A DNA stretch of 64,000 nt, from NCBI GenBank assembly GCA_050260475.1, contig JBLNCG010000028.1:64283-128282 (forward strand), written 5' to 3'. The DNA is from Bacillota bacterium. Its GTDB lineage: Bacteria > Bacillota > UBA4882 > JBLNCG01. Each line of letters starts with the position of its first letter. The stretch's first letter is position 1. Under the pieces are notes generated by a model. That model did no database searches. It saw only the letters and a list, made by a program, of their open reading frames with translations, and was not told the DNA's origin. The position numbers and the translations under genes are program-made. Of the stretch, positions 1-45,438 are shown piece after piece.

Positions 1-2356
1 TCTTGCGGCGGAATATGTAAAAAAACAGATCGATGAGAAAAATATTCGTAAGCAAAAATGCCGGGATGAATATGATCGGATCGAGCGCCTTCTTACGGAA
101 ATCGAAAATTCTCTGATTTCATTAAATCAGAACAGGGAAAAACTGCATAGAGAGAAATCCTCGCTGCGGATTCAACTGGCGGAAAATGAAAGTGCACTGG
201 CCAAAACCAGGGATGCCTTGATGAATGCGAAGCAAAAAAAGGCTGCATACGGAGCCAGACTGGATGCCATGGAGCGGATGGAGCACGAGTATGATGGATA
301 TGCCATGGGAGTAAAGCATGTCATGGGCGCTGAAACGCAGCCATTTCGCAGAGGTGTAGTGGGAACCGTTGCGCAGCTTTTTTCGGCGCAGCATGGATAT
401 GAAGTGGCTCTTGATACGGTTTTAGGGCATGCGCTTCAGGACGTGGTGGTGGAAAACGATCAAATCGCGCAACAAGCGATATCGTACCTGAAACAGTCCC
501 AGAGCGGCCGTGTCACCTTTTTACCTTTAAATCTTATGGAAACGCGCAGGCCTCCGGAAGCTCTTTCCGCCGATCTGCTGTCCAAGCATGAGCTGGTGGC
601 AGCAGAAACCGTATTTACTGGGGAGGCCCGGCTGCAAAAGATTGTCCGATATCTGCTGGGTAATGTTTTGATCGCGCCCGATTTAAAGATCGCAATGGCG
701 GCTTTTCACGCGACAAAGCGACAGTTTCGCCTTGTAACTTTGGAAGGGGATCTGCTTTTACCCGGAGGAGCCATTTCCGGAGGGGGACGGGCTTTGCGCC
801 AGGCAGGCCTTTTGGAAAGAAAAGCCGAGTTTAAGCGGATCCGTACGGATGCTGATATCCTGGAACGGGAAATAGCGGATCTGATAATCACTGTTTCCTC
901 CCTGGAGAATTGCATCGCTGATTTGGCCGGCCGTTTAAATGAAATAACCGTCCGGCTTCAGGAACAGGAAATTAAAGCCGCTGGATTAACCGGTGAAAGT
1001 GAAAGATGGCAAAATGACTTGGCGCGCTGGGGGAAGGAATTGGAGGTACTGGAATTCGAACTGTCGGATTTGGCGCGGGAGCAAAGCGGACTGGTTGAAA
1101 AAACAAAAACGGAAGAATCGGATCTGGCGGATTCTGAGAACGCCAGAGCCGCTTTGGAAGCCGGGTTGTCGGAATGCGAACAGAATTTGAAATCCGCGCG
1201 AAAAGAACATGAAGACCTTCTTCATCAGTTGGGCGATGATAAAGCCTTGCTGGCGGCGGCCTGTCAGGAGGAAATGAATTTAAAACAGTTGTGCGCGAAT
1301 CTGAAGGAGCAATTGAATGAGCTGGAGCATCAAAGTGCCAGCAATCGCGAATTAAAACAAAAACTCCTGGCGGATATGGCGGGAATGAAAAACGATCTAA
1401 ACGTATATATGGAGGCTATCGGCGCGCTGATTTTAAAACGGGATCAGGAGATTGCGGAAATAGAAAAACTCAAAGCCCTTAAAACCGCTATGCAGGATGA
1501 CTGGGCCTCGCTGGAAGGGGATGAAGAGGAATGGCGCAAAACCGTCAAAGAGAAGGAGGAAAGAAGCCTCCGCCTGGAATTAAAAGTAAGCCAGTTGGCG
1601 TTGCAGACGGAAAACCACCATCGTTACCTGGCCGAGAATTACGGGGAGGATTGGCGCGCCAAATTTTGCGACGGGAATGGGGAATCCGTTGCCAATGCAA
1701 AAAGTAGAATAAGTGAATTGAAAGCGGAAATGAAGGCCATGGGCAATGTCAATACGGGCGCCATCGACGAATACCAGCGCTTAAAAGAGCGATACATTTT
1801 TTTGCAAAGACAACAGGAGGATTTACTCCAGGCCAAAGAATCATTGCTGGAGGTAATAAGTGAAATCGAAGGGACAACCACGGAAAGGTTTCTGGAGACA
1901 TTCGTAAAAGTGCGTGAAGAGTTTCAGTATATTTTCTCTCATCTTTTTGATGGCGGAAAGGCGGATTTGCTGTTGAGCGAGCCGGAGCGGCCCTTGGAAT
2001 CCGGCATAGAGATTTTTGCACAGCCTCCGGGAAAAAGGCTGCAGAACCTGTTGTCCCTTTCCGGCGGGGAAAGAGCCATGACCGCTATTTCCCTTCTTTT
2101 TGCCATTTTGAAGGTCAAGCCCACGCCATTTTGCGTGCTTGATGAAATCGACGCGACCCTCGACGAGGTTAATGTGCAGCGCTTTGCCGACCTACTTGTG
2201 GAATTTTCCGAAAAGATCCAGTTTGTAGTAATCACCCACCGCCGCGGCACCATGGAAATGTCAAACGCTTTGTATGGGGCAAGTATGGAAGAACGCGGCG
2301 TATCCAAACTGATCTCCATAAAATTGGCTGAAAATGAAAAGACGAAGGCAAGTTGA
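1..2356 (+). CDS. smc: chromosome segregation protein SMC, C-terminal ~785 aa (5' end outside window)
   Basis: Frame of the 218..2356 ORF is open back to position 2. Long coiled-coil heptad sequence. C-terminal ABC signature LSGGE and Walker B/D-loop (VLDEIDATLD). Followed by ftsY as in conserved synteny. Confidence 0.9.
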   Translation, partial: LAAEYVKKQIDEKNIRKQKCRDEYDRIERLLTEIENSLISLNQNREKLHREKSSLRIQLAENESALAKTRDALMNAKQKKAAYGARLDAMERMEHEYDGYAMGVKHVMGAETQPFRRGVVGTVAQLFSAQHGYEVALDTVLGHALQDVVVENDQIAQQAISYLKQSQSGRVTFLPLNLMETRRPPEALSADLLSKHELVAAETVFTGEARLQKIVRYLLGNVLIAPDLKIAMAAFHATKRQFRLVTLEGDLLLPGGAISGGGRALRQAGLLERKAEFKRIRTDADILEREIADLIITVSSLENCIADLAGRLNEITVRLQEQEIKAAGLTGESERWQNDLARWGKELEVLEFELSDLAREQSGLVEKTKTEESDLADSENARAALEAGLSECEQNLKSARKEHEDLLHQLGDDKALLAAACQEEMNLKQLCANLKEQLNELEHQSASNRELKQKLLADMAGMKNDLNVYMEAIGALILKRDQEIAEIEKLKALKTAMQDDWASLEGDEEEWRKTVKEKEERSLRLELKVSQLALQTENHHRYLAENYGEDWRAKFCDGNGESVANAKSRISELKAEMKAMGNVNTGAIDEYQRLKERYIFLQRQQEDLLQAKESLLEVISEIEGTTTERFLETFVKVREEFQYIFSHLFDGGKADLLLSEPERPLESGIEIFAQPPGKRLQNLLSLSGGERAMTAISLLFAILKVKPTPFCVLDEIDATLDEVNVQRFADLLVEFSEKIQFVVITHRRGTMEMSNALYGASMEERGVSKLISIKLAENEKTKAS

Positions 2357-3285
2357 TGTTTATGCCGGCAAACCTTTATAATAGTTTAAAAAAAGGCCTG
2401 GCCCGAACGGGACAGCATTTTTCCACCCAACTTTCCAGGATTTTCAGGGGGAAATCCCCGGTCAGCCGGGAAACATGGGATGAATTGGAAGCTGCGTTGA
2501 TCATGGCTGATCTGGGGGTTGATTATACCGGCTTATTGATTCAGCGGCTGAAAGCGCGCCTCAGGGAGGGGGATATCGTAGGCGCCGGGGATGTACGCGA
2601 GGCATTGTCCGGAATAATACTGGAGGATTGGCCTGATGTTGCACGGCCGTGGCCTCCGGACATCAAAACAATCATTTTTATACTAGGAGTCAATGGGGTT
2701 GGCAAAACCACCACCATCGGGAAACTTGCAGGCCAGCTTGTTTCTGCGGGAAAAAAAGTTTTAATAGCGGCGGGGGATACTTTTCGAGCTGCCGCCATCG
2801 ATCAGCTTGCCATCTGGGCTGAAAAGGCGGGCGCCGGTCTGGTTGCCCACCGTGAAGGCGCCGATCCCGGCGCGGTGGTGTACGATGCAGTTCATGCAGC
2901 CGATGCGCGCCGGGCGGACGTGCTTCTGGTGGATACCGCCGGACGTTTGCACAATAAGGTAAACTTGATGGAAGAATTGAAAAAAATGCACCGCATCGCC
3001 GTTAAGGAGGCCGGGGAATACCTGATCCAAAACTGGCTTGTGCTTGACGCCACCACCGGGCAGAACGCCCTGGCGCAGGCCGGGGCATTTCAGGCTGCGG
3101 TACGGCTCGATGGATTCGTTATGACTAAGCTGGATGGGACAGCCAAAGGGGGGATCGCCTTGGCAGTTTTGCATACTCTGAAAATTCCACTGCTTTTCGC
3201 AGGGATCGGCGAGGGGATGGAGGATCTGAAACCGGTTGAACCGGAGAACTTTATACGCGCCATCGCAGGAGAAGGGGGGCAATAA
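2353..3285 (+). CDS. ftsY: signal recognition particle receptor FtsY (short Firmicute form)
   Basis: SRP54-type GTPase motifs GVNGVGKTTT, DTAGR, TKLDG. ATG overlaps the smc stop (ATGA). Confidence 0.9.
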   Translation: MMFMPANLYNSLKKGLARTGQHFSTQLSRIFRGKSPVSRETWDELEAALIMADLGVDYTGLLIQRLKARLREGDIVGAGDVREALSGIILEDWPDVARPWPPDIKTIIFILGVNGVGKTTTIGKLAGQLVSAGKKVLIAAGDTFRAAAIDQLAIWAEKAGAGLVAHREGADPGAVVYDAVHAADARRADVLLVDTAGRLHNKVNLMEELKKMHRIAVKEAGEYLIQNWLVLDATTGQNALAQAGAFQAAVRLDGFVMTKLDGTAKGGIALAVLHTLKIPLLFAGIGEGMEDLKPVEPENFIRAIAGEGGQ

Positions 3286-3286
3286 A

Positions 3287-3898
3287 TTGCCGCAGATTAA
3301 AAAATCCAGGATACGGGAATGGCTTGAATTTTTTTCTCAAGTTTTCATCATCGCCCTGTTTGTTTTGATTTTCATCACGCAGCAATATATGGTCAAGGGG
3401 AGTTCCATGGAGTCCACCTTGCATCATGGCGATCGGCTGTTTGTGGACAAGCTGACCTATTATTTTTCCGCTCCGCAGCGCGGGGATATAGTTATCGTAA
3501 AGGATCAGCTTTCCGTACAGATCATTAAGCGCGTAATCGGGCTGCCCGGGGATTCCATTTATGCTAAAGACGGGCATCTGTTTGTCGATAATAATGAATA
3601 TATCGAACCTTATATAAATACGCCGTTCGATGATTTTGAATCGGTAAGAGTGGATCCTGACACGTATTTCGTACTCGGGGATAATCGGCCGTGCAGCAGC
3701 GACAGCCGCTTTATCGGGGCCGTCTCCCGAAAAAAAATCATCGGCAAGGCCTTTATCCGCATCTTTCCCTTTAATAAAATAGGATTGATCAAGCGGCCCC
3801 AATATAAGCCCCTTCCGAGGAAGGAGAATTCATACGGAGGTTATGGTTACAAAGACTATGGTTATCCCCCGGCGCATGATCCTTATTTCAAGCCTTAA
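3287..3898 (+). CDS. lepB: signal peptidase I (LepB/SipS family)
   Basis: Probable TTG start at 3287, 6 nt after AGGAGAAGGGGGG. N-terminal TM segment, catalytic SM(E/Q)PT and KR boxes, GDNR motif. Unusual Tyr/Gly-rich C-terminal tail. Confidence 0.8.
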   Translation: MPQIKKSRIREWLEFFSQVFIIALFVLIFITQQYMVKGSSMESTLHHGDRLFVDKLTYYFSAPQRGDIVIVKDQLSVQIIKRVIGLPGDSIYAKDGHLFVDNNEYIEPYINTPFDDFESVRVDPDTYFVLGDNRPCSSDSRFIGAVSRKKIIGKAFIRIFPFNKIGLIKRPQYKPLPRKENSYGGYGYKDYGYPPAHDPYFKP

Positions 3899-4019
3899 TA
3901 AACAGAACCGTGAATCCCGTTTGGGAATAAAAGCTGTATGTTGATTCACGTCAGCTTATTTTTATTACTTCGTTCGCTGACGTGAACGACTACTTGAAAA
4001 TTGCATAAAAGAACCGGGG

Positions 4020-4255
4020 CGCTTATTCTTGGAAGCTTAATAGGGAAACAGGTGCGATTCCTGTGCGGTCCCGCCACTGTAAGGGGGAGCCTCCTGGTAA
4101 ATGCCACTTTCCGTCACTATTGGCGCAGTATTCCAAGTGCCGGGGGGGAAGGCGCCAGGTGGACGAAGAACCCGAGTCAGGAGACCTGCCCCGGTTTCGC
4201 TGCGGCAAATGGGCCGCTGCACATCTCACAACCTACGGACGATAGGAGGGTGAAA
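4020..4255 (+). promoter_or_regulatory. cobalamin (AdoCbl) riboswitch aptamer
   Basis: Conserved core AATAGGGAA...GGTGCGATTCC...GCGGTCCCGCCACTGTAAGGGGGAG with the B12 box GCCACTG. Located in the leader of a TonB-dependent BtuB-like receptor gene. Confidence 0.85.
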
Positions 4256-4276
4256 AATGAGCATTTATTTTGCCTT

Positions 4277-4312
4277 TGATCCGGATCCGGGTTAAAGGCA
4301 TTTTTTATTAAA
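4277..4312 (+). terminator. riboswitch expression-platform intrinsic terminator
   Basis: GCCTTTGATCCGGATCCGGGTTAAAGGC stem (contains the palindrome CCGGATCCGG) followed by CATTTTTTATT. Confidence 0.6.
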
Positions 4313-4428
4313 GGCAATTGCGTTTTACCTTGATTCAAGGTCTTGCCATTAAATATAGTGTATGGCTACCATTAGGCTATCGATATTTCGCGGCAAGGCG
4401 TAAAATTATCACAACAACGCAAATTGCT
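4313..4428 (+). repeat. intergenic repeat family A, copy 1 (TIR-bounded, ~116 bp)
   Basis: AAGGCAATTGCGTT..TACC...GTCTTGCC...ATTAGGCTATCGATATTT...GGCAAGG...CAACAACGCAAATTGCT. Ends are inverted repeats of each other (GCAATTGCGTTGTTA / TAACAACGCAATTGC). An inner 7-bp inverted repeat GTCTTGC/GCAAGAC is also present. Four more copies occur in the window. Confidence 0.8.
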
Positions 4429-4482
4429 TATTCACACTACAAAATCATTCTTTTTAAAAATGACTGAATGGAGGCAAGGTAT

Positions 4483-6288
4483 ATGAATTTTAAAAAAGTC
4501 ATCATCGGCATATTGATTTTGGTATTATTTTCAATGGGAATAATCATGGCGTGGGCGGAGGAAGGGCACGATGATGCCGGAGAGGCTGATGAAGAAATAG
4601 TGGTAACCGCCACCCGAACCGCCGAATCTTCCGAGGAGTCTCCGGGAATGACTGAAACAGTTTCCGGCGAGGAGGTTGAAAGTAAAAAGGATGTGCCGGA
4701 AGCCCTGCGGGATGAAGGAGTCACTGTGTCCTTTTACGGAGGGGACAGTTCTGCCGCTGCACTGCAGCTAGACGGATGCTCTGCGGAGCAGACCGTGATC
4801 TTGCTCAATGGAGTTCCGTTGAGCGGCGGATGCAGCGGGATCTATGATTTGAGTTTTTTCCCTTCCGATGGCGTGGAGAGAATTGAAATCGCACACGGCC
4901 CTTTGTCTTCGTTGCACGGAGCCAACGCTTTAGGCGGCGCCCTTAATATCTTTACGGACTTGACCGGCGAGGCCTGCGTTAAAATAATGAAACGCTATGG
5001 CGATTTTTCCTCGGTGCAGACCGGTTTTCTTTTGCAAGACAACGAATTTGGAATCGCGATGGGACAGTCATCGACCCAAGGTTACCGCAATGATCCGGCT
5101 ACGGATACATATTTGTGCGGACAAATCGATCTTTGGACGAAAGATGAAAACAGTTGCAGCTTTTATCTTTATTTGCTGGGGAAAAATGCCGGGATACCGG
5201 GTTCCACATTTTATCCGTCAAATGGCCGGGAGCATGACAGCAGTTTTCTGGGAAGCATCCTGGGCAGAAAAAAAACCGGCGGGATAAAGTGGGAATACAG
5301 CCTTTATCGGCAGCAGTCGCAGTTGAATTACCAGGACAGCGCCTCTGTCGGCAACCATTTCGCTCTGCGGGAGGGTGCGGACCTGGCATGCTTCTACGAA
5401 GGGAAAAAACACACTTTCCTTACGGGTCTGCATTGCAACAGGGATTATTACGAAAGCAACGTCTCCGGTATTCATTCCATGGACAATACGGGCATCTTCT
5501 CCCAGGACATCTGGAAGATAAACAGCAGAACCACGGCCATTTGCGGTGTCCGGTGGGATCATAACGATGTATATGGATCCGCCTGGTCGCCCAGGATCAA
5601 TTTGATACATGGGCTGTCATCCGATTGGACGGTTAAAATCGGCTACGGCAAAGCTTTCCGGGCTCCGACCATCAACGAATTATACTGGAGTCAACCGGAA
5701 TTGGGAATGAACGGCAATCCGGAACTTAAGCCGGAAAACGGAGAAAGATGGGATGCGGTCCTTCAGTATGGCTCCGGTAAGGATTCAATAGCGATCGATG
5801 TATTCAGAACGGATCTTGCGGACGGCATCAACTGGGAGGCTACGCCGCCTGACTGGTTCTTTACGCCGGAAAACATTCAAAAAATACGCATCAACGGAGT
5901 AACTCTGCAGTGCAAACGGCAGTTTAACGATTGGTTGGGTTTTACTTTAAACAGTCAATGGCTGGATAAAAAAGCCTGGGATGCGGTTGACGCCGATTAC
6001 ACCCGTGATATGAACTATTATGGACGGCGCCGGTTTGCACTGGGATTCGATACCGCCTGGAAATCCTGGACGGTGGATGCAAACTGGCAGTTCACGGGGG
6101 ATCGATACCAGTGGGGCTCTGCAGTGCCGGATTATCACATTTACAACTTATATGCCACATATAAGGCAAGTCCAAATGTGGTTTTTCAGTTGGCAGTGCA
6201 GAACGCTCTCGATGAAATTTATGAGATGCATCAGGGTTATCCCATGCCGGGGAGGGAAATCCGACTGGGATGGATCATCAAAGCATGA
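4483..6288 (+). CDS. btuB: TonB-dependent outer-membrane receptor, BtuB-like (vitamin B12 transporter)
   Basis: Signal peptide, TonB box EIVVTATR, plug then beta-barrel length (~600 aa), aromatic-rich C-terminus. Downstream of the cobalamin riboswitch. RBS GGAGG 8 nt before ATG 4483. Confidence 0.8.
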   Translation: MNFKKVIIGILILVLFSMGIIMAWAEEGHDDAGEADEEIVVTATRTAESSEESPGMTETVSGEEVESKKDVPEALRDEGVTVSFYGGDSSAAALQLDGCSAEQTVILLNGVPLSGGCSGIYDLSFFPSDGVERIEIAHGPLSSLHGANALGGALNIFTDLTGEACVKIMKRYGDFSSVQTGFLLQDNEFGIAMGQSSTQGYRNDPATDTYLCGQIDLWTKDENSCSFYLYLLGKNAGIPGSTFYPSNGREHDSSFLGSILGRKKTGGIKWEYSLYRQQSQLNYQDSASVGNHFALREGADLACFYEGKKHTFLTGLHCNRDYYESNVSGIHSMDNTGIFSQDIWKINSRTTAICGVRWDHNDVYGSAWSPRINLIHGLSSDWTVKIGYGKAFRAPTINELYWSQPELGMNGNPELKPENGERWDAVLQYGSGKDSIAIDVFRTDLADGINWEATPPDWFFTPENIQKIRINGVTLQCKRQFNDWLGFTLNSQWLDKKAWDAVDADYTRDMNYYGRRRFALGFDTAWKSWTVDANWQFTGDRYQWGSAVPDYHIYNLYATYKASPNVVFQLAVQNALDEIYEMHQGYPMPGREIRLGWIIKA

Positions 6289-6938
6289 AAAAACACGGCA
6301 GGCCGGAGTTAAAACCCATCCACGGGTGTTTTTTGGTTTCCGCCGGACTTCATGTGCTTTTTTTACTGATCGCCGGGTTTCACGGGGATTCGGATTTGAA
6401 TGCCATCGAGTATGTGGAAATCACAGTTTCAGGCGAATGGCTGCATGATCCGCATATTTCTTTGTCCAAAACAAATTGCCCGGTCTTATCCTCCGGGCCC
6501 GATCTGAAAGCAGATCCTGAAGAAAAAACAGAGGCGGTCCCTGATGAAACATACATCCCCCTAAAAAGCCTTGAATATGTTAATCCTTCTCCACAAAGCA
6601 TGCAGCCCGGCGGAGAACAGCCCGAGGCACGCGTTTTGGGTGATGAAGGGACGGAAAACCCTGGAACGCCCGGATTCACACCCGTAAAAATTTTCCACGT
6701 CAACCCGGAATATCCCGCTGAAGCTAGGCGTAAAAACTGGGAAGGAGCGGTGTTCCTCAATCTTGAGATTACGCCTGCAGGTGATGTCGGGTCAGTCGTA
6801 CTAGTCAAATCTTCAGGGCATGCTCTTTTGGACCGCGCTGCGCAAAACGCGGCAAAGAGCTGGAAATATCTTCCAGCTCCGGATCAGCGTGTTGTCGTTC
6901 ATCTGCTTGTTAAAATAATTTTTCGACTGGAGGATTAG
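6285..6938 (+). CDS. tonB: energy transducer TonB
   Basis: N-terminal TM anchor, Pro/Glu-rich spacer, TonB C-terminal domain (VNPEYPAEARRKNWEGAV...). Start overlaps the btuB stop (translational coupling). Alternative ATG at 6270. Confidence 0.75.
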   Translation: MKKHGRPELKPIHGCFLVSAGLHVLFLLIAGFHGDSDLNAIEYVEITVSGEWLHDPHISLSKTNCPVLSSGPDLKADPEEKTEAVPDETYIPLKSLEYVNPSPQSMQPGGEQPEARVLGDEGTENPGTPGFTPVKIFHVNPEYPAEARRKNWEGAVFLNLEITPAGDVGSVVLVKSSGHALLDRAAQNAAKSWKYLPAPDQRVVVHLLVKIIFRLED

Positions 6939-6940
6939 GC

Positions 6941-7384
6941 ATGTTATGGATTGAACAGGGAGGATTCTTTATGCTCCCGCTGGTTGTGTGCTCCATAATT
7001 GGCATGGCAGTTATTTTGGAACGTTTTTTTGCTTACGGGAGGATTATGAAGATCCCTTTGATTAAATACGACAGTCCCCCGGACATCGTAAAGATGCTGC
7101 GGATGCGCATGATGACCATGTCCACGCTGATCACGATTAGTCCCATGCTCGGACTGCTTGGTACTGTGACGGGCCTGATGAAATGCTTCCGTCTCTTATC
7201 AGGAACCGCGGTAGTACGTCATCCCAAAGAAATGAGCCTGGGGATTAGCGAAGCGCTTGTTACAACTGCAGCCGGCCTGATCATTGCCGTTACGGTCACT
7301 GTGTTTTATAACTATTTTGCCTCGCGCTTGGACTCATACCTGTTCGATTACGATACAGCTTGTGAGGCGGATCGGCATGCATAA
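6941..7384 (+). CDS. exbB: MotA/TolQ/ExbB proton-channel protein (short form)
   Basis: Three TM segments with the conserved TolQ/ExbB C-terminal helix motif. Confidence 0.75.
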   Translation: MLWIEQGGFFMLPLVVCSIIGMAVILERFFAYGRIMKIPLIKYDSPPDIVKMLRMRMMTMSTLITISPMLGLLGTVTGLMKCFRLLSGTAVVRHPKEMSLGISEALVTTAAGLIIAVTVTVFYNYFASRLDSYLFDYDTACEADRHA

Positions 7385-7817
7385 ACCGATCCCCGTTAAA
7401 CCGCTTCCTTCCCCCAAGGTGGAAATCATCAATCTTATCGATGTGCTCATCAGTTTGATTGCTTTTTTCCTGTTCACGACGGTTTTCATCCAGTACCGCT
7501 ATGGATTCACCATTAAATTGCCTGAAGCGGAAGCGGGCGCCTTTAATAACGCAACAGAAGCTATTGTGGTGGATATTGATAAGAAAGGAGAGCTGGCAGT
7601 GAACGGAAAAGTGGTTGCCAGACATAAACTTGAGCAAGTTTTCAAAGGCAGGGGCAAAAACCTGCCGGTGTTTGTGCGAGCGGATAAATCATGCCCTTTT
7701 CAATGGGTGGTGGAAATACTCGGAAAAGCCAAGCGTGCTGGTTTGAAAAAAATCAACCTGGAAGCCCTGGAAAAAATTGCGGATAACCGTCATATGAATA
7801 ATCCCGTCGATAAATAA
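7377..7817 (+). CDS. exbD: biopolymer transport protein ExbD/TolR
   Basis: MHKPIPV...PKVEIINLIDVLISLIAFF single TM plus periplasmic domain. ATG overlaps the exbB stop (ATGCATAA). Confidence 0.8.
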   Translation: MHKPIPVKPLPSPKVEIINLIDVLISLIAFFLFTTVFIQYRYGFTIKLPEAEAGAFNNATEAIVVDIDKKGELAVNGKVVARHKLEQVFKGRGKNLPVFVRADKSCPFQWVVEILGKAKRAGLKKINLEALEKIADNRHMNNPVDK

Positions 7818-7847
7818 TTGTGTTAAAAAATTTGCGCCAAATAGTTG

Positions 7848-7876
7848 TTGACTTCCGTATGCCTCATGGTTATACT
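7848..7876 (+). promoter_or_regulatory. sigma-A type promoter TTGACT-17-TATACT
   Basis: Near-consensus -35 TTGACT (7848-7853), 17-nt spacer, -10 TATACT (7871-7876). Drives transcription into repeat A copy 2 and ylxM-ffh. Confidence 0.6.
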
Positions 7877-7905
7877 ATATCCTGTCAAGGGAAAATGCTT
7901 GACAA

Positions 7906-8019
7906 GGCAATTGCGTTGTTACCTTAATTCAAGTCTTGCACTTAAATATAATGTATAATTACTATTAGGCTATCGATATTTTAGCAAGACGTAAAATCAT
8001 CATAACAACGTATATTGCT
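7906..8019 (+). repeat. intergenic repeat family A, copy 2
   Basis: Same architecture as copy 1: AAGGCAATTGCGTTGTTACC...GTCTTGC...ATTAGGCTATCGATATTT...GCAAGAC...CATAACAACGTATATTGCTC. Confidence 0.8.
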
Positions 8020-8057
8020 CCTTGAAAGGATTTTTTCAACCGGGCCGGTGAAAAAAC

Positions 8058-8411
8058 TTGGAAGAAATGGTGCGCATCAATTTGATGCTTGACTTTTACG
8101 GGGATCTGCTTACCAAGAAGCAGCGGCGCATTTTGGAAAGCTATTACGCCCTCAACTTTTCCCTAGTGGAAATTGCCCAGGAGGAGAGGAGCAGCCGCCA
8201 GGCGGTGCATAATTTGCTGCACCGGGGCGTTCAGATTCTGGAGGATCTTGAGACAAAACTTTCCATGGTCCGTGATCACCTTGCCAGGAAACAGAGCCTT
8301 AAGAAGGCATGCTCGGAAATAAATAATATCCTGGCGATTTGCCCGGATAAAATCAAACCCGGACTGTTTGAGTTGATGCAGAGGCTTGAGCGGTTGGCTG
8401 AAAAGGAATAA
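8058..8411 (+). CDS. ylxM: UPF0122 DNA-binding protein YlxM (SRP operon)
   Basis: Helix-turn-helix sigma-70 region 4-like protein with the conserved YlxM N-terminus (LDFYGDLLTKKQRRILE). Immediately upstream of ffh. Confidence 0.8.
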   Translation: MEEMVRINLMLDFYGDLLTKKQRRILESYYALNFSLVEIAQEERSSRQAVHNLLHRGVQILEDLETKLSMVRDHLARKQSLKKACSEINNILAICPDKIKPGLFELMQRLERLAEKE

Positions 8412-8462
8412 TCATTTGGTCCTTCTGCTTGATGCAGGCGGGGCCGGGGAAAGGCCGGAGAA

Positions 8463-9788
8463 ATGTTTGAACAGTTGGCGCGAAAAATTCAGGAAGCCTT
8501 GAAGTTTTTAAGCAACCGGGGCAAGCTTTCGGAAAAGGATTTGGACGATGCTTTGCGCCTAATCCGTCTGTCCTTGCTGGAAGCTGATGTGAATTATAAA
8601 GTGGTTAAGGATTTTATTCAGAGGGCAAGGGAGAAGGCCCTGGGGAAAGAGGTTTTGGAAAGCCTGACCCCGGGCCAGATGGTGGTGAAAATCGTCCGGG
8701 ATGAATTGGTTTCATTAATGGGTGGAACCAACCAGGGTTTGTCGTATTCAGTTCAATCTCCGCTGGTCGTGATGATAATCGGCCTTCAGGGATCCGGGAA
8801 AACCACTACCTGCGCCAAGCTGGCCCGGCTCTTAAAACAGTCCGGAAAGCGTCCGTTGCTGGTGGCGGCGGATATTTACCGGCCGGCTGCGGTGGATCAG
8901 CTAAAGATACTGGCTGAACGCCTTGATGTATTGTTTTACGAATCGCGGAGGAAGGCTCCGCCGCAAATTGCCTCGGAAGGTTTGAACGAAGCGCGCAGGA
9001 AAGCGGCGGATACGGTGATCATTGATACGGCGGGCCGCCTTCATATCGATGGGGAAATGCTGTCCGAACTTCAGGAAATCGCCAATAATGTCAATCCAGG
9101 TGAAATCTTGCTGGTGGCGGATGCCATGACCGGCCAGGATGCGGTGGCGGTGGCGCAAGGATTTCAATCCGTCCTGAACCTGACAGGCGTCATCCTTACC
9201 AAAGTGGACAGCGATGCCAGAGGCGGCGCCGCTCTTTCCATGCGATCAACCCTGGAAAAACCCATCAAATATATCGGTGTAGGGGAAAAGCTGGAGGCTT
9301 TGGAGCCTTTCCATCCTGAGCGCATGGCGTCACGCATTCTGGGCATGGGCGATATCCTTACTCTTATCGAGAAGGCCGAAACCGCCATGAATGCGGAGCA
9401 GTCGAAAAAAATAGCCCGGAAATTGAGCAGGGCGGATTTCACCCTGGAAGATTTTCTTGATCAGTTGGAACAGATGAAAAAAATGGGTCCCTTGGAGGAT
9501 TTGCTTAAAATCATCCCTGTTCTGCCCGGTAACGATTTGGCTGCGCTCAAGGTGGATGAAAAGGACCTCGTCCGTCTTGAAGCGATCATCCGTTCCATGA
9601 CTCCGGGAGAGCGGGCCAATCCGCAGATTATCAATGCAAGCCGTAGAGAGAGAATCGCCAGGGGAAGCGGTACATCCATCCAAGATATTAATAGATTATT
9701 GAACAGGTTTGAACAAAGCCGTAAAATGATCAAGGAATTCGCCGGAATAAGCAAAAAGTCCGGGAAGAAAAGACCGTTCCCTTTTTAA
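8463..9788 (+). CDS. ffh: signal recognition particle protein Ffh
   Basis: SRP54 N domain, G domain (GLQGSGKTTT, DTAGR, TKVDG) and Met-rich M domain. Confidence 0.95.
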   Translation: MFEQLARKIQEALKFLSNRGKLSEKDLDDALRLIRLSLLEADVNYKVVKDFIQRAREKALGKEVLESLTPGQMVVKIVRDELVSLMGGTNQGLSYSVQSPLVVMIIGLQGSGKTTTCAKLARLLKQSGKRPLLVAADIYRPAAVDQLKILAERLDVLFYESRRKAPPQIASEGLNEARRKAADTVIIDTAGRLHIDGEMLSELQEIANNVNPGEILLVADAMTGQDAVAVAQGFQSVLNLTGVILTKVDSDARGGAALSMRSTLEKPIKYIGVGEKLEALEPFHPERMASRILGMGDILTLIEKAETAMNAEQSKKIARKLSRADFTLEDFLDQLEQMKKMGPLEDLLKIIPVLPGNDLAALKVDEKDLVRLEAIIRSMTPGERANPQIINASRRERIARGSGTSIQDINRLLNRFEQSRKMIKEFAGISKKSGKKRPFPF

Positions 9789-12725: not shown

Positions 12726-12823
12726 CCGTTTTGGAAAATCGCGATATCTCTAGGCCGTACCAATTAAGGTACGCTCGGCGTGCCTAAGTTAAGGCACGTT
12801 CCTTTAACGCGTTTTGCGATTGC
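12726..12823 (-). repeat. intergenic repeat family C, copy 1 (~98 bp, TIR-bounded)
   Basis: Ends ATCGCGATTTTCCAAAACGG / AACGCGTTTTGCGATTG are inverted repeats of each other. Two internal perfect hairpins: GTACC-aattaa-GGTAC and GTGCCT-aagtta-AGGCAC. The reverse complement aligns with copy 2 at 44713-44784. Confidence 0.7.
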
Positions 12824-13029
12824 TCAACTTTTACACTTTGATTTTAATGCAGCAAAATCAATATTTTAGGGATATTAAATTTGAAAAAATCGTTAAAAGA
12901 TCGTCTTTTCTTGTCCCGCAAGATCATTTGGATATTTTTCATTGCTGATTTTGATTTTTTTGTTTTGCATTGCAAGAACAGAAAGATATGACTTTGCGCC
13001 GGGCTAAATTGATATGCGAAATTTGAGTG
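12823..13029 (+). repeat. intergenic repeat family B, copy 1 (~207 bp)
   Basis: Starts CTCAACTTTT, ends CGAAATTTGAGTG (imperfect TIR). Contains the perfect 24-bp palindrome TTGATTTTAATGCAGCAAAATCAA (12838-12861) and a second palindrome TCTTGTCCCGCAAGA. Aligns with 16192-16349. Confidence 0.7.
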
Positions 13030-13925: not shown

Positions 13926-14970
13926 CTCCGCCGACGATATTGTTGGTATGAAAACTAATCAGGCGCCAGAGGGTGATGATTACTCCCAGCATATTTTTAG
14001 GAACATAAAGCTGACGGAAAATGGAGAGGAATCCTAATTCCACCACCCCGCTTCCCCCAGGAATAGGCAGGTAGGCAGCGACAAAAATGAATAGGTATTG
14101 AAGCAGGATGGAACTGGCGAAGTTCACTTTAAATCCCAGAAAATACAAGATAACAGGGGCAATGGAAAAAAATGAGAGCCAAAAAAGGCTGGAAAGGATC
14201 AAAATCAATGCAATTAGCCCCTTATTTTTATGAAAAAGCGCCGTGAGGCAAAGGTGGAATTCATCCAGCGCTTTGAAAAAGGCCTCCAAGTTGGTTTCCA
14301 GGAATATGTTTTTTCCCCGATCGGACGCGTCGCATTCTGCGGAAGAGCATTTTTGTTTTTCTTTACTGCATTTAAACAGCGCGAGAAATGTTAAGAGCAG
14401 GTTTTTTGCCGCATGCGGTCTGCTGAGAAAGAAGATTAAAAGTCCGCTGATCACCGCGCCTAGGATTATTAAAATAATCTGGATGAATAAAGCGAGATGC
14501 AGTACTTTCGGAAAAATAAACAGCAGCACGGGGGCTCCCAGCGTGAAAACAAGGGTGCCTGTGGCGATGCGCGCCGTAACGACGGCACTGGCTTTTCCCA
14601 GGGACATCCCCTCCTTGTGCAGAAGGTAAACCTGGGTAGGGGCACCTCCCGAAGTATATGGAGTCATATTTCCTGTAAAAAAAGTAGCCAGGTTGATTAA
14701 AATGATTTTATATAATGGAAGGTTTTCCTCAAGTAAAGTGGAAATGACTTTTATGCGCATACCTTCAACCAGCCACGACAGGGCAAGCATTAAAAGACCG
14801 GCGGCGGCAGCCCAGCATAACTTGAAGGTGTTCAATGCGCGCAGAACTTTTAAGGTGTCTCCGCCTGAACTGTAAAGGTTGACGGCTAGCAGGCATAAGA
14901 AGCTCAAACCCACGGTAACGGTAATACCGCGTTGAATGGTTCTGCGGCTAATGCTGTTTCGGCTGATCAT
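13873..14970 (-). CDS. UPF0104 / flippase-like (LPG_synthase_TM family) integral membrane protein
   Basis: About 8 predicted TM helices. The conserved C-terminal IPGGSGVVELGF motif is typical of the family. 3' end overlaps the rbgA 3' end by 53 bp (convergent). Confidence 0.65.
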   Translation of the reverse strand: MISRNSISRRTIQRGITVTVGLSFLCLLAVNLYSSGGDTLKVLRALNTFKLCWAAAAGLLMLALSWLVEGMRIKVISTLLEENLPLYKIILINLATFFTGNMTPYTSGGAPTQVYLLHKEGMSLGKASAVVTARIATGTLVFTLGAPVLLFIFPKVLHLALFIQIILIILGAVISGLLIFFLSRPHAAKNLLLTFLALFKCSKEKQKCSSAECDASDRGKNIFLETNLEAFFKALDEFHLCLTALFHKNKGLIALILILSSLFWLSFFSIAPVILYFLGFKVNFASSILLQYLFIFVAAYLPIPGGSGVVELGFLSIFRQLYVPKNMLGVIITLWRLISFHTNNIVGGVIFLRLLKDKSPAATRE

Positions 14971-15256
14971 GTTTCATGTTCCCACCTTTTCGGCAATGTC
15001 AAAAACAGGTCCTATATGGGATAAAAAATGGATTGTGATATTTATCAAACTCTTGCCATACCATAAAATTCAGTTCTATTTCATATTTTATTGCTATTTT
15101 CGCCCTGATGTGCCTTTCTCCTGCAGCAAGATCTTCCATCCGCGCCGCAGTCCGGCGCCCAATCTTAAGTACCTGACATATATGCGCTTACGATTAAATG
15201 CCATAATTATTCTCAATCCAATCGTAATTTCATGGCAGAACTGGGAAGGCGGTTTT

Positions 15257-15937
15257 ATGCAAGAATCCGCATTACACAATTTATACAACCGGATGTTTCC
15301 GGGTTTAAAAACCAAACTTCACGAGGAGAAAAAACGCCTTCATCTGATGTTGAGTTATGAACGCCGCTGCCTCAGGAGGGGTTACTCCAAAGTGGCGGGG
15401 ATTGATGAGGCTGGCAGGGGCCCGCTGGCCGGCCCGGTGATAGCCGCGGCGGCGATTTTGCCTTCCGGCATCAAGCCATATGGCCTTAATGATTCCAAGC
15501 AAATGACCAAAGGACAACGGGAGTATCTGTACCAGCATCTGCTGGATTCCGGAGCTGCCATAGCATGGGCCGGTGTGGATGCGGAAGAAATCGATGTTCT
15601 CAACATTTACCGGGCTACCATAAAAGCCATGCGATTAGCGTTGGAAAAACTCATCCCTCAACCGGACTTTTTACTAATAGACGGAATGGGGATCGATCTG
15701 GGAATGCCTGGAGAGGCCATTGTAAAAGGAGATGCGAAATCGTTGTCCATTGCCGCGGCTTCTGTAGTGGCAAAAGTTGCCCGGGATCGGATTATGGAGG
15801 AATACGCCAGTGTTTATCCTGAATACGGTTTTGATAAACATAAAGGCTATCCGACCCCTGAACACTACCGTATCCTGCAAAAGCTGGGCCCTTGCAAAAT
15901 ACACCGGTTGTCTTTCCGGCTTAAGGAAAAGGCTTAA
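15257..15937 (+). CDS. rnhB: ribonuclease HII
   Basis: GIDEAGRGPLAGPV catalytic motif. Start chosen at ATG 15257 (GGGAAGGCGG RBS). The long upstream in-frame extension lacks homology. Confidence 0.85.
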   Translation: MQESALHNLYNRMFPGLKTKLHEEKKRLHLMLSYERRCLRRGYSKVAGIDEAGRGPLAGPVIAAAAILPSGIKPYGLNDSKQMTKGQREYLYQHLLDSGAAIAWAGVDAEEIDVLNIYRATIKAMRLALEKLIPQPDFLLIDGMGIDLGMPGEAIVKGDAKSLSIAAASVVAKVARDRIMEEYASVYPEYGFDKHKGYPTPEHYRILQKLGPCKIHRLSFRLKEKA

Positions 15938-15941
15938 ACAG

Positions 15942-16058
15942 GGCAATCTGCGTTGTTAAGATAATTTTACGCCTTGCCACGGAATATCGATAGCCTAATA
16001 GTAGCCATATACTATATTTACTGGCAAGACCTAGTATTAAGGTAAAAAAGCAATTGCC
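15942..16058 (-). repeat. intergenic repeat family A, copy 3 (inverted orientation)
   Basis: The reverse complement aligns along the full length with copies 1 and 2 (…AAGGCAATTGC…ATTAGGCTATCGATATT…CAACGCAGATTGCCC). Confidence 0.8.
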
Positions 16059-16162
16059 TTAACAGGTAAAACTTTAAACAAAAAAAAAGGGTATTAAGTT
16101 TTGGCAACAAACGCCGATTTTAAGATTAAGACCAGCCGAACGATCTATAACATCCCCCCCAT

Positions 16163-16191: not shown

Positions 16192-16349
16192 CTCAACTTT
16201 CGCACCTTGATTTTAATGCGGCAAAATCAATATTAAATTGAAAAAATCGTTAAAACATTCGTCTGTTCTTGTTACGCAAGATCATAATGTTTTGAATTTA
16301 TATTAATTGATATGATTTTGCTGCGCTCTAATCGTATACGAAAGTTGAG
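16192..16349 (+). repeat. intergenic repeat family B, copy 2 (~158 bp)
   Basis: CTCAACTTTCG...CGAAAGTTGAG 11-bp perfect TIRs. Contains the palindrome TTGATTTTAATGCGGCAAAATCAA (16207-16230) and TCTTGTTACGCAAGA. Confidence 0.75.
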
Positions 16350-16361
16350 TCGCGAATATAA

Positions 16362-17522
16362 TCATATGGATTTAAATACCGCGATGCAATTGTTGCCTAC
16401 CACTACCAGATAGCCGAGGCCGATGGAAGCATGTCTGGAATATTCATTATATTTTTCCAACAGGACTGATTCATATAACTGTTTGTCCGCTGAATATATT
16501 TCTCCGGAAATCAAGCGGCGTCCCGCCAAAGGGTCAAAAGAGCGGTAATAAACCATTCCGTTGGCGCTGAATATATAACTGGTGTTGCCGCCGGCGACGG
16601 CATTCCAGTGTATTTTTCCAGTCAAGGCATCCAGTGCGAAAATTTTGCCTGTGGTGCAGTGAGCTATCAGGTAATTCTGATATAGGGTGTAATGATTGAT
16701 ATTTCCCTCTAACCGCATCTGCCAAATGGTTTTTCCGGTAGTTTCACTGAGGGCGTGAATTAGATAATCCGAAGTCCCGACAAATACCATCCCCTGGGAA
16801 AGGACAGGATGGTTTGCGCCCCGGACCTTTGTTTTCCATATGATATCCCCGTTTTTAGGGGATAATGCGATCACTTCCGTAAATGAGCCGCTTATGTCGT
16901 TAGAGCTTACTGAAGTGAAACAGATGATATCGTTGTTTACCGCGAATGCGTTGGAGTTAACGCCCTGATATACTTTTTTCCAAATTGTGTCGCCATTGCT
17001 TGCATTAAGCGCAAAGAAATCAATACCGGAGGATCTTTTTCCCATCAGATATAGTTTATCATGGCAAAGCAGTGGAGGATAATGGTAATCGCTTAAAAAA
17101 GTCTTAGCCCAGAGTTCCTTTCCATTAAAGGCGTCATAGCAAAAAAGCGTGCCCTTTTTAGTTAATACTATAAGTTTTCCCTGATAAAATACAGGTTCAA
17201 GAAAACTTTCGAAATATGAAGTTTCCCAAGATACTTTGCCGGTCGCGATATTATAAGCGATCAGTTCCTGATTTTGCGTCAGTATGAAAAATTTGCCTCC
17301 GCCGATGATCGGTTCGGAACAAAAAACAGGGTTGTCGACGCGGGGCGGAATGCTCCAAACGAAAGTATAAGGAACCTTCGCGGATTTTTCGCCGGTATTC
17401 GCCCTGGTGCCGGAACCGTCGCAGCCGAACATCGGCCAGTTATCGGCGGATTCTGTCGCTGCCATGCCCGATCCTGTCAGCAATAGTAAAAGGAACAATA
17501 GTGGCGAGATTTTTTTATACAT
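16362..17522 (-). CDS. secreted PQQ-repeat beta-propeller protein (BamB-like)
   Basis: Signal peptide MYKKISPLLFLLLLLTGSGMAA. Repeated YAL/YAxD-G-W beta-propeller blades. Perfect RBS AAGGGAGG 7 nt before ATG 17522. Confidence 0.7.
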   Translation of the reverse strand: MYKKISPLLFLLLLLTGSGMAATESADNWPMFGCDGSGTRANTGEKSAKVPYTFVWSIPPRVDNPVFCSEPIIGGGKFFILTQNQELIAYNIATGKVSWETSYFESFLEPVFYQGKLIVLTKKGTLFCYDAFNGKELWAKTFLSDYHYPPLLCHDKLYLMGKRSSGIDFFALNASNGDTIWKKVYQGVNSNAFAVNNDIICFTSVSSNDISGSFTEVIALSPKNGDIIWKTKVRGANHPVLSQGMVFVGTSDYLIHALSETTGKTIWQMRLEGNINHYTLYQNYLIAHCTTGKIFALDALTGKIHWNAVAGGNTSYIFSANGMVYYRSFDPLAGRRLISGEIYSADKQLYESVLLEKYNEYSRHASIGLGYLVVVGNNCIAVFKSI

Positions 17523-17608
17523 GGCCGGACCTCCCTTCGACGACACATATATTCTGCTTTGTTCGATATAATCCTGCTCAAGCCAATGCTTTTCTATAAA
17601 AACTTGTA

Positions 17609-23203: not shown

Positions 23204-23428
23204 ATGCAGGAATTTTCTTTTTTGGGACGGATGCTGGTGGTAATAGGTATTGTCATTGCAGGAGCCGGAGTGATCTTCATGCTGGCAGGGAGGATACCCT
23301 GGCTGGGACGCCTGCCGGGCGACATTGTAATTAAAAAAGGTAATTTTACAGGCTATTTTTTATTCGGCACCAGCATCCTGATCAGCCTGATATGGACCTT
23401 GTTTTTCTGGCTGTTCGGCAAAAAATAG
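23204..23428 (+). CDS. DUF2905 small membrane protein
   Basis: Two-TM, 74-aa protein with the conserved RIPWLGRLPGDI motif. AAGGAGGA RBS. Confidence 0.6.
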   Translation: MQEFSFLGRMLVVIGIVIAGAGVIFMLAGRIPWLGRLPGDIVIKKGNFTGYFLFGTSILISLIWTLFFWLFGKK

Positions 23429-23446
23429 ATGGTCGTTCACGCCAGC

Positions 23447-23499
23447 TATCGATATTTGGTGGCAAGACGTAAAATTATCATAACAACGCAAATTGCTCT
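23447..23499 (+). repeat. intergenic repeat family A, copy 4 (3' half only, truncated)
   Basis: GCTATCGATATTTGGTGGCAAGACGTAAAATTATCATAACAACGCAAATTGCTC matches the 3' ~55 bp of family A. The 5' arm is absent. Confidence 0.7.
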
Positions 23500-23522: not shown

Positions 23523-24263
23523 ATGGCTTTGCTCAAAGATGAGGGGATTGTGGTGCGCACCCGGCCAATAAATGAAGCAGACCGGATTGTCACGATTTTA
23601 AGCGCAAAACACGGAAAAATAGAAGCGGTGGCGAGGGGGGCGCGGCGTCCGCGCAGCAGGTTCGTGGGCAGCACGCTTCCCTTCACGCACGTGGTTTTCG
23701 CTGTTTTTGAAGGCAAAGGCATGCATGATTTGAGTCAGGCGGAAATCATATCTTCTTTTCCTATTTTACGGAACGATTTGCTCAAGCTGGCTTACGCCTC
23801 GTACTGGATGGACCTATTGGAGAATCTTTTGGAGATTCAGCAAAGCGCCGAAGACGTTTTCAATTTGACCGCTAAAGCCTTAAAAGAATTATCCGAAGTG
23901 GATAAACCCGCATTGCTATCCAGACTGTTCGAATTACGCCTTGCGGATTACCTGGGGTGGAAGCCTGAACTGGAAGCATGTGTGCGGTGCGGGAAAACGC
24001 TGGACGCCCCGCCCTATTTTTTCTCCGCTTCCATGGGCGGGATGGTATGCCAGGCATGCAGGGATGGCTCCACCGGAGAAGTGCCGGTTTTGGAAGAAAC
24101 ATGGCAAACACTGAACAATCTGCAGAACAACAAGTCAAACCGCTGGCCCCAGAGCATCTCCCGGAGAGCCGAAAAAGAAATGGCGGGTTTATTGCATGAT
24201 TTTTTCCGGCTTCAGACCGGCAGGGCTATAAAGTCTTTTTCTTTTCTTCAAGAGGTGGAGTAA
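23523..24263 (+). CDS. recO: DNA repair protein RecO
   Basis: OB-fold N-terminus and C-terminal zinc finger (CVRCGK...CQAC). Confidence 0.85.
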   Translation: MALLKDEGIVVRTRPINEADRIVTILSAKHGKIEAVARGARRPRSRFVGSTLPFTHVVFAVFEGKGMHDLSQAEIISSFPILRNDLLKLAYASYWMDLLENLLEIQQSAEDVFNLTAKALKELSEVDKPALLSRLFELRLADYLGWKPELEACVRCGKTLDAPPYFFSASMGGMVCQACRDGSTGEVPVLEETWQTLNNLQNNKSNRWPQSISRRAEKEMAGLLHDFFRLQTGRAIKSFSFLQEVE

Positions 24264-44712: not shown

Positions 44713-44784
44713 GATTTCGGAAAACGCGTTAAAGGAGCGTGCCTTAACTTAAGCATGGCAGGTTTCGCGATTCTCCGAAATCGG
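44713..44784 (+). repeat. intergenic repeat family C, copy 2 (~72 bp)
   Basis: GATTTCGGAAAACGCGTT...GTGCCTTAACTTAAGCATGGC...TTTCGCGATTCTCCGAAATCGG. Ends form ~17-bp inverted repeats. Aligns with the reverse complement of 12726-12823. Confidence 0.7.
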
Positions 44785-44982: not shown

Positions 44983-45180
44983 TTGGAAAACCATTTAAAA
45001 AAAGTGGATTTGCATTGCCGTTATATCCTGGTAAGCGCCATTGCCAAAAGAGCCAGACAGATCATGATGGACAGTCTGAAAAACGGAGACGACAAGGCCA
45101 TGCGTGCAGTCTACCTCGCCCAGAAGGAAATCGAACAAGGAAAACTGCATGTGGAGCCTGGTGCGGCCCTTTATTCATAA
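44983..45180 (+). CDS. rpoZ: DNA-directed RNA polymerase subunit omega
   Basis: LLENHLKKVDLHCRYILVSAIAKRARQI matches the RpoZ core. TTG start 6 nt after CAGGGAGGG. Confidence 0.8.
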   Translation: MENHLKKVDLHCRYILVSAIAKRARQIMMDSLKNGDDKAMRAVYLAQKEIEQGKLHVEPGAALYS

Positions 45181-45237: not shown

Positions 45238-45358
45238 AGAGCAATTTGCATTGTCATTATAATATTACGTCTTGCCGTAAATATCGATAGTCTAATGGCA
45301 GGCCGTACACTATATTTAATGGCACGACCCAGCATTAAAGTAACAACGCAATTGCCTT
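45238..45358 (-). repeat. intergenic repeat family A, copy 5 (inverted orientation)
   Basis: The reverse complement aligns full-length with copy 1 (AAGGCAATTGCGTTGTTAC...CCATTAAATATAGTGTA...CATTAGACTATCGATATTT...GGCAAGACG...CAAATTGCTCTGC). Confidence 0.8.
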
Positions 45359-45389
45359 AAGCAAAAAACATACCGCACTATCTTGGCAG

Positions 45390-45400: not shown

Positions 45401-45438
45401 TATATGCAGTCCGGAATTCCTGTCGGCGGGTGAGAGCG

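Follow-up and report, generated by a model that had tools for sequence, protein, structure and literature searches.

A MITE-like repeat in the ylxM-ffh leader of an uncultured Bacillota bacterium and a conserved palindrome at the operon's promoter

Here, we describe a short intergenic repeat, family A copy 2, that lies between a sigma-A-type promoter and ylxM in the leader of the SRP operon of an uncultured Bacillota bacterium, within an analysed stretch of 64,000 nucleotides (the window). In our overall reading, which we regard as probable, a MITE-type element inserted into the ylxM-ffh leader and is now carried along in the transcript as a passenger, and the 22-bp palindrome at the promoter is a DNA operator with YlxM as its putative binder. 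The anatomy of the leader, the repeat family with its target duplications, and the fact that promoter and palindrome are conserved can be read directly from the sequences. The insertion of copy 2 is in itself ordinary; the palindrome is the more interesting part. The leader and its surroundings are composed as follows.

7380-7817: exbD, the upstream neighbour of ylxM
7818-8057, + strand: exbD-ylxM intergenic region, from the stop of the ExbD-family gene (7817) to ylxM
7848-7876, + strand: sigma-A-type promoter, with -35 TTGACT at 7848-7853, a 17-nt spacer and -10 TATACT at 7871-7876
7883-7904: 22-bp palindrome TGTCAAG-ggaaaatg-CTTGACA, in the 'O2' position, past the -10 and at the predicted start
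7898-7902: left target duplication CTTGA, inside the 3' arm of the palindrome
7904-8020, + strand: family A copy 2, full, 117 nt, AAGGCAATTGCGTTGTTA to TAACAACGTATATTGCTC
7924-7952, + strand: internal promoter-like site TTAATT-17-TATAAT, with a second TATAAT at 7954-7959; function doubtful
8021-8025: right target duplication CTTGA
8026-8057, + strand: residual native leader, with the SD GGTGA at 8047-8051
8058-8411, + strand: ylxM (UPF0122, sigma-70 region-4-like HTH), start TTG 8058, alternative starts ATG 8067 and GTG 8070
8463-9788, + strand: ffh (SRP54), followed by rpsP, khpA, rimM, trmD and rplS

The promoter agrees with the sigma-A consensus at 10 of 12 positions in the promoter scan, and the 17 nt between its hexamers fall within the 17 +/- 1 nt expected of such a promoter in the right place. 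Judged by the window alone this site does not rise above chance, as the scan of 3800-8600 returned 10 promoter-like sites against 6.9 +/- 3.0 in shuffled sequence. The promoter is convincing because 24 related loci share it together with the same palindrome 5' of ylxM; the -10 sequence TATACT itself recurs 5' of ylxM in four of the relatives (L004, L006, L011 and L015). The earlier note had placed TTGACT-17-TATACT at exactly these positions, and the promoter position is the one kept in the 24 relatives. Transcription of ylxM-ffh is predicted to start near 7883. The terminator scan found no terminator-like site between exbD and ylxM, and read-through into ylxM from the upstream riboswitch-controlled operon is possible.

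Downstream, GGTGA also serves as SD in the relatives L011 and L015. Translation from TTG 8058 yields MEEMVRINLMLDFY and gives YlxM an N-terminus of the same length as in the relatives, and TTG 8058 is a plausible ylxM start; a gene caller run on the contig of an independent assembly from Logan chose GTG 8070 instead. A hairpin covering the SD (8032-8056) was considered as a further feature and rejected, its stability being that of shuffled sequence (z = -0.06). The encoded protein matches the Pfam family PF04297 (1.7e-20) and, above the Pfam cut-off, PF08281 (Sigma70_r4_2; 4.5e-6), with structural matches to PDB 1S7O and 1XSV.

The conserved Bacillota gene order smc-ftsY-ylxM-ffh is broken in the window. 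The region upstream of ylxM had been taken for an ftsY-ylxM intergenic region, which is wrong: ylxM adjoins exbD (7380-7817), and ftsY is separated from it by a signal peptidase gene (lepB), a TonB-dependent receptor gene, tonB, exbB and exbD, together with a cobalamin riboswitch.

2353-3285: ftsY, separated from ylxM
4000-4207: cobalamin riboswitch aptamer (Rfam, 106.5 bits)
4271-4300: stem of the riboswitch terminator, followed by T6

The TonB-dependent receptor gene probably starts at ATG 4483. The TonB cassette and a BamB-like gene (16362-17546, - strand) suggest a diderm Bacillota lineage without a close sequenced relative. Among 5.8 billion proteins the nearest foreign Ffh is only 64% identical, and a true empty site for copy 2 cannot be found for that reason.

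Copy 2 is one of five copies of family A in the 64 kb, three on the + strand and two on the - strand, all of them intergenic. They were detected by a seed-based repeat search and then by nhmmer, with a model made from the four full copies.

4311-4427, + strand: family A copy 1, full, flanked by TTATT at 4305-4309 and 4428-4432
7904-8020, + strand: family A copy 2, as above
15937-16062, - strand: family A copy 3, full, duplication CCTGTT
23445-23499, + strand: family A half copy (c5), right half only, nhmmer E = 1.4e-14
45238-45360, - strand: family A copy 4, full, duplication TGCTT

The match of copy 2 (E = 5e-35) is partly by construction, as the model includes it; the half copy, which is outside the model, still matched at the 1e-14 level. 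Copy 1 lies in a leader, between the terminator of the cobalamin riboswitch and the TonB-dependent receptor gene, in the same orientation as that gene. Its box pair TTGATT-18-TATAGT (4330-4359) could in principle bypass the riboswitch. Copy 3 lies between the convergent rnhB-like (14936-15937) and BamB-like (16362-17546) genes, and copy 4 is upstream of an extended -10-like sequence, TGGTATAAT, that precedes the gene at 45430. The half copy, which may be a truncation or a partial insertion, sits between an ORF ending at 23428 and a recO-like ORF starting at 23523, 24 nt from the latter.

The element measures 115-118 nt from AAGG to ATTGC, is non-coding and falls within the size range of MITEs (under about 300 bp); across copy 1, the list of open reading frames holds a single ORF of 49 aa that spans the element. 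Its terminal inverted repeats are about 16 nt long, AAGGCAATTGCGTTGTTA pairing with TAACAACGCAAATTGCT(C), and the pairs between positions 5-20 and 106-122 are kept in all four full copies. The element is near-palindromic, and the nhmmer model also matches the opposite strand of each full copy. Each of the four full copies is flanked by a target duplication of 5-6 bp (TTATT, CTTGA, CCTGTT and TGCTT), scored as a direct repeat, 5 nt or longer, that is shared by the two flanks and lies no more than 10 nt from the respective end. At random positions in the window a shared 5-mer occurs by chance with a probability of 3.9% per copy (0.039), or about 2e-6 for four out of four. From the sequence, the duplications at 4/4 copies are a signature of transposition. 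Two details count against this main reading: the ends of the element vary by 0-2 nt, and one extra base separates duplication and element in copy 2 (C7903) and in copy 1 (A4310). Folded as RNA, the sense strands of the copies reach -30 to -41 kcal/mol (z -3.0 to -5.3), copy 2 having -30.2 kcal/mol (z = -4.8). In copies 3 and 4 the sense fold is more stable than the antisense fold, which leaves room for a role at the RNA level.

Contig L002 from Logan (SRR24035587), an independent assembly of the same organism, starts inside copy 2 (L002 1-115), a break that is expected because the repeat is multicopy. The 64-kb window holds no parent insertion sequence or transposase with family A ends, and no autonomous insertion sequence with matching ends was found in the window, plasmids, viral contigs, JGI metagenomes or GTDB representatives. 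The family A pattern CTATCGATATT-N3-7-GCAAGRCGTAA had no match in JGI metagenomes or viral contigs and a single match in GTDB representative genomes, in a Holosporaceae MAG, which is at about chance level and only weakly matched by nhmmer. A blastn search of plasmids gave no match to the element, and it is absent from the ylxM-ffh loci of the relatives that were fetched. Rfam recognised only the cobalamin riboswitch and one tRNA in the whole window and nothing for family A; the best score on 7800-8100 was 21.5 bits against a threshold of 70. Among the searched collections, family A is known only from this uncultured bacterium, and by its sequence features we class it as MITE-type, a new family specific to this lineage.

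Short palindromic repeats of comparable habit are known from other bacteria. Correia elements (CREE/NEMIS) of Neisseria are palindromic non-coding repeats of 100-155 bp with a TA duplication and 26-bp ends, which often lie between promoter and gene, are co-transcribed as long leader hairpins and sometimes contain promoter-like boxes. Family A resembles them in being short, palindromic and non-coding, with inverted ends, target duplications, positions between promoter and gene, leader hairpins and promoter-like boxes; however, it duplicates 5-6 bp, has ends of about 16 nt, shares no sequence similarity and resides in an uncultured Bacillota host. Another comparison is with ERIC/IRU (enterobacteria) and RUP/BOX (Streptococcus pneumoniae), imperfect palindromes of 100-130 bp that lie in transcribed intergenic regions and can alter mRNA stability. 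They are alike to family A as imperfect palindromes of similar size scattered in transcribed intergenic DNA, but differ in sequence, ends and target duplications, and family A is known here from sequence alone. REP/BIME elements, associated with RAYT transposases, are likewise dispersed intergenic palindromes, yet REPs are 20-40 nt long and without target duplications, whereas family A has 117 nt and duplications, and we rejected this identity. By this comparison, family A would work like Correia, ERIC or RUP elements and stand outside those families, as its ends and target duplication differ.

The genome seems rich in small repeats. A second intergenic repeat of about 100 nt occurs in two copies in the same orientation (12823-12935 and 16192-16290) and contains the inverted repeat TTGATTTT-AATGCRGC-AAAATCAA; one copy is separated from family A copy 3 by 130 nt. 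Two exact intergenic copies of a third, short repeat, AAAACGCGTTAAAGGANCGTGCCTTAACTTA, lie in opposite orientation at 12785-12815 (- strand) and 44721-44751 (+ strand). A small ORF of about 65 aa at 44985-45180 (LENHLKKVDLHCRYILVSAIAKRARQIM...), absent from the ORF list, ends just before family A copy 4 and, judged by eye, resembles the RNA polymerase omega subunit (RpoZ).

Copy 2 was expected between promoter and ylxM (8058), in the SRP operon leader, and this is where it lies, at 7904-8020. The left CTTGA duplication is embedded in the palindrome, the last two bases of the 3' arm being C7903 and A7904, the latter also the first base of the element; even after the insertion the palindrome is a perfect consensus site. 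Measured to the residue aligned with the window's GTG 8070, the palindrome is 165 nt away from ylxM in the window, compared with 16-45 nt in those relatives in which the palindrome likewise follows the -10. Removal of about 120 nt (7903-8020 plus one CTTGA) restores a gap of 45 nt, or about 33 nt when counted from TTG 8058. The element was inserted into an ancestral leader, as judged from the promoter and palindrome that the relatives share and from the deletion that restores their spacing. We propose that copy 2 reached the 5' leader of ylxM-ffh-rpsP by transposition and would thereby have duplicated a 5-bp target, CTTGA. This target would belong to an ancestral 22-bp palindrome, within its 3' arm; the palindrome directly follows the sigma-A promoter, and both would have stayed intact. 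The reconstructed empty site would have read ...AATGCTTGAAAGGATTTT... at the junction. The earlier note had left open whether the repeat was inserted into the 5' UTR or supplies it; ancestral promoter and palindrome, the CTTGA duplication and the restored spacing bear out the insertion, and the idea that the element supplies the leader is not supported.

Transcription from about 7883 would read through copy 2 and place a hairpin of about -30 kcal/mol in a leader of about 175 nt. Copy 2 is almost certainly co-transcribed with ylxM-ffh, since the promoter is upstream and no terminator follows the element, the terminator scan of 7904-8058 having returned no terminator-like site. The SD GGTGA is 27 nt 3' of copy 2. 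From its sequence context, copy 2 is most likely a passenger that the operon tolerates; if it influences the stability or processing of the mRNA at all, it would do so mildly.

The 7-bp inverted repeat that had been reported as a transcript hairpin at 7886-7907 has the sequence given, but lies at 7883-7904, the positions in that reading being 3 nt too high. It is also no incidental RNA hairpin; it is an instance of a palindrome that is conserved across Bacillota. Since a search for YlxM homologues returned only YlxM itself (a word-index limit), the ylxM-ffh loci of relatives (L003-L084) were fetched by their Ffh, which is 51-64% identical. A strict pattern of promoter plus TGTnAAG-N8-CTTnACA matches 5' of ylxM in 24 relatives (Ffh at most 64% identical), where the promoter reads TTGACA-16/18-TAnnnT, as well as in the window. 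Two of these loci, L004 and L006, exemplify a compact arrangement: a ftsY-ylxM spacer of 72-78 bp with TTGACA-17-TATACT, TGTAAAG...CTTAACA about 6 nt later, and then SD and start.

The palindrome was counted within 260 nt upstream of ylxM at 62 loci in which ylxM could be recognised and the upstream sequence was long enough. TGTnAAG-N7-9-CTTnACA is exact at 46 of them, has one mismatch at 13 and two at 2, and is lacking at one. With at most one mismatch it thus marks 59/62 ylxM loci, compared with none of the 16 loci without ylxM before ffh, and so both sits at ylxM's promoter and co-occurs with ylxM, as proposed for an operator. In about 0.4 Mb of fetched sequence, exact palindromes occur only 5' of ylxM and, in four Bacillus-like loci, 5' of rpsP.

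L024, 3062: palindrome 5' of rpsP
L029, 3914: palindrome 5' of rpsP
L031, 3874: palindrome 5' of rpsP
L052, 1730: palindrome 5' of rpsP

Two placements can be distinguished. At 20 distinct sites, among them that of the window, the palindrome starts 3-9 nt past the -10, where transcription is predicted to begin (class I). At 13 distinct sites (class II) the -35 hexamer is formed by the 3' arm CTTGACA, and a -10 follows 16-18 nt downstream. Many loci carry both positions, 47-64 bp apart. The window has a single site, even with two mismatches allowed, and inspection by eye of 7832-7853 revealed no second palindrome over its -35. The arms are conserved in sequence, whereas position 4/19 is often mismatched (A-A in 8/34) and the inner 8 nt are AT-rich and do not keep their complementarity.

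These features bear on whether the palindrome acts in DNA or in RNA. A 5'-terminal stem-loop that protects the mRNA would fit the class I sites, all 20 of which would come at the 5' end of the transcript, and the predicted stability of the window's palindrome as RNA (-8.0 kcal/mol, z = -4.7). It is nevertheless unlikely, because the 13 class II sites cover the -35 and precede the start, the arms keep their sequence and not just their complementarity, pairing is often lost at position 4/19, and the inner positions do not keep it. The placement of class II copies over the -35, upstream of the transcript, makes a DNA site the more likely choice, and an operator is further suggested by the conserved arms, the mismatched position 4/19, the unpaired inner 8 nt and the way in which the site brackets the promoter. 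Judged from these sequence comparisons, the palindrome most likely acts in DNA in an operator-like manner and not as an RNA stem.

The element itself could have contributed more than a passenger. Its left half contains TTRATN-17/18-TATART in all full copies (in copy 1, TTGATT-18-TATAGT at 4330-4359), and two perfect TATAAT boxes in copy 2 arose from changes specific to this copy, 7947-7959 reading TATAATGTATAA where the family consensus has TATAGTGTATGG; they could reflect AT-drift or selection for an internal promoter. If TTAATT-17-TATAAT in copy 2 were a working promoter that starts ylxM-ffh transcription downstream of the palindrome, the operon would be independent of any palindrome binder, and copy 1 would bypass the cobalamin riboswitch. 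We consider this quite unlikely: the -35 of copy 2 is poor (3/6) and fails the criteria of the promoter scan, the boxes lie in an AT-rich segment, in which matches of this kind are frequent, copies 3 and 4 face away from genes or lie between convergent ones, and the ancestral upstream promoter is intact and better. It is similarly quite improbable that family A is an exapted cis-acting RNA whose leader hairpin controls stability, RNase III processing or translation of ylxM-ffh and the btuB-like operon. Copies 1, 2 and 5 do lie in leaders, co-oriented with the downstream gene, and the stable sense folds surpass the antisense folds in copies 3 and 4. However, these last two copies are in opposite orientation and outside leaders, the target duplications point to mobility, no Rfam family matches, the element is absent from all relatives, and covariation is lacking (term +0.56; 1/41 pairs compensatory) in a comparison of four copies that is uninformative. 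The earlier note had further allowed for a small RNA that consists of copy 2 and is transcribed from the promoter at 7848-7876; it would end before ylxM. What speaks for it is the strong hairpin, followed by a T6 run at 8031-8036. That run, however, begins 10 nt beyond the stem, too distant to act with it, no terminator-like site is present in 7904-8058, and in dozens of relatives the same promoter and palindrome stand directly before ylxM, so that the small RNA is highly improbable. Copy 2 was also rejected as an intrinsic terminator or small-RNA gene by its structure, as it does not offer a GC-rich stem with a U-tract directly after it.

Returning to the palindrome as an operator, we propose YlxM as the candidate binder, because the half-site is -35-like, the protein has an HTH of the sigma region-4 type and the site strictly co-occurs with ylxM at the gene's own promoter. 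We infer that YlxM may bind the palindrome and thereby repress its own synthesis. The full proposal, that TGTnAAG-N8-CTTnACA is the YlxM operator and that YlxM is an autorepressor acting on the -35 and/or +1 of ylxM-ffh and, in Bacilli, on the rpsP promoter, is a serious possibility that we hold at slightly less than even. In the literature that was searched, no description of the palindrome or of a YlxM operator was found. Yus et al. (2019; PMC6721554) report the Mycoplasma pneumoniae protein (MPN424), defined by ChIP-seq, as one of nine transcription factors with binding motifs and as a repressor of one ribosomal operon, mpn656-660. This is a partial precedent for the present proposal, in which the palindrome tracks ylxM and, in Bacillus-like loci, also sits on the rpsP promoter. 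We take mpn656-660 to include rpsP, trmD and rplS. In Bacillus subtilis, promoters have been mapped 5' of ylxM (P1) and 5' of rpsP (P2) (PMC10100781), and at both of these positions Bacillus-like loci have the palindrome. YlxM is conserved across Bacillota and mostly seen as an accessory factor of SRP; other papers treat it as a modulator of the SRP GTPase (Williams 2014, as represented in citing work).

Taken alone, the insertion of copy 2 is a routine example of an essential operon that tolerates a MITE-like repeat in its leader. Its main use is as a warning for annotation: short-read assemblies stop at the repeat, the start of ylxM may be set wrongly by gene callers, and the leader exceeds those of relatives by 120 nt. 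The wider meaning lies in the operator-like palindrome that marks ylxM-ffh promoters across Bacillota and leads to a hypothesis on DNA binding by YlxM and on SRP control in Gram-positives. If true, a YlxM operator would couple the expression of SRP and ribosomal proteins, and the family A insertion would show that the operator was kept intact even though a mobile element landed in its 3' arm.
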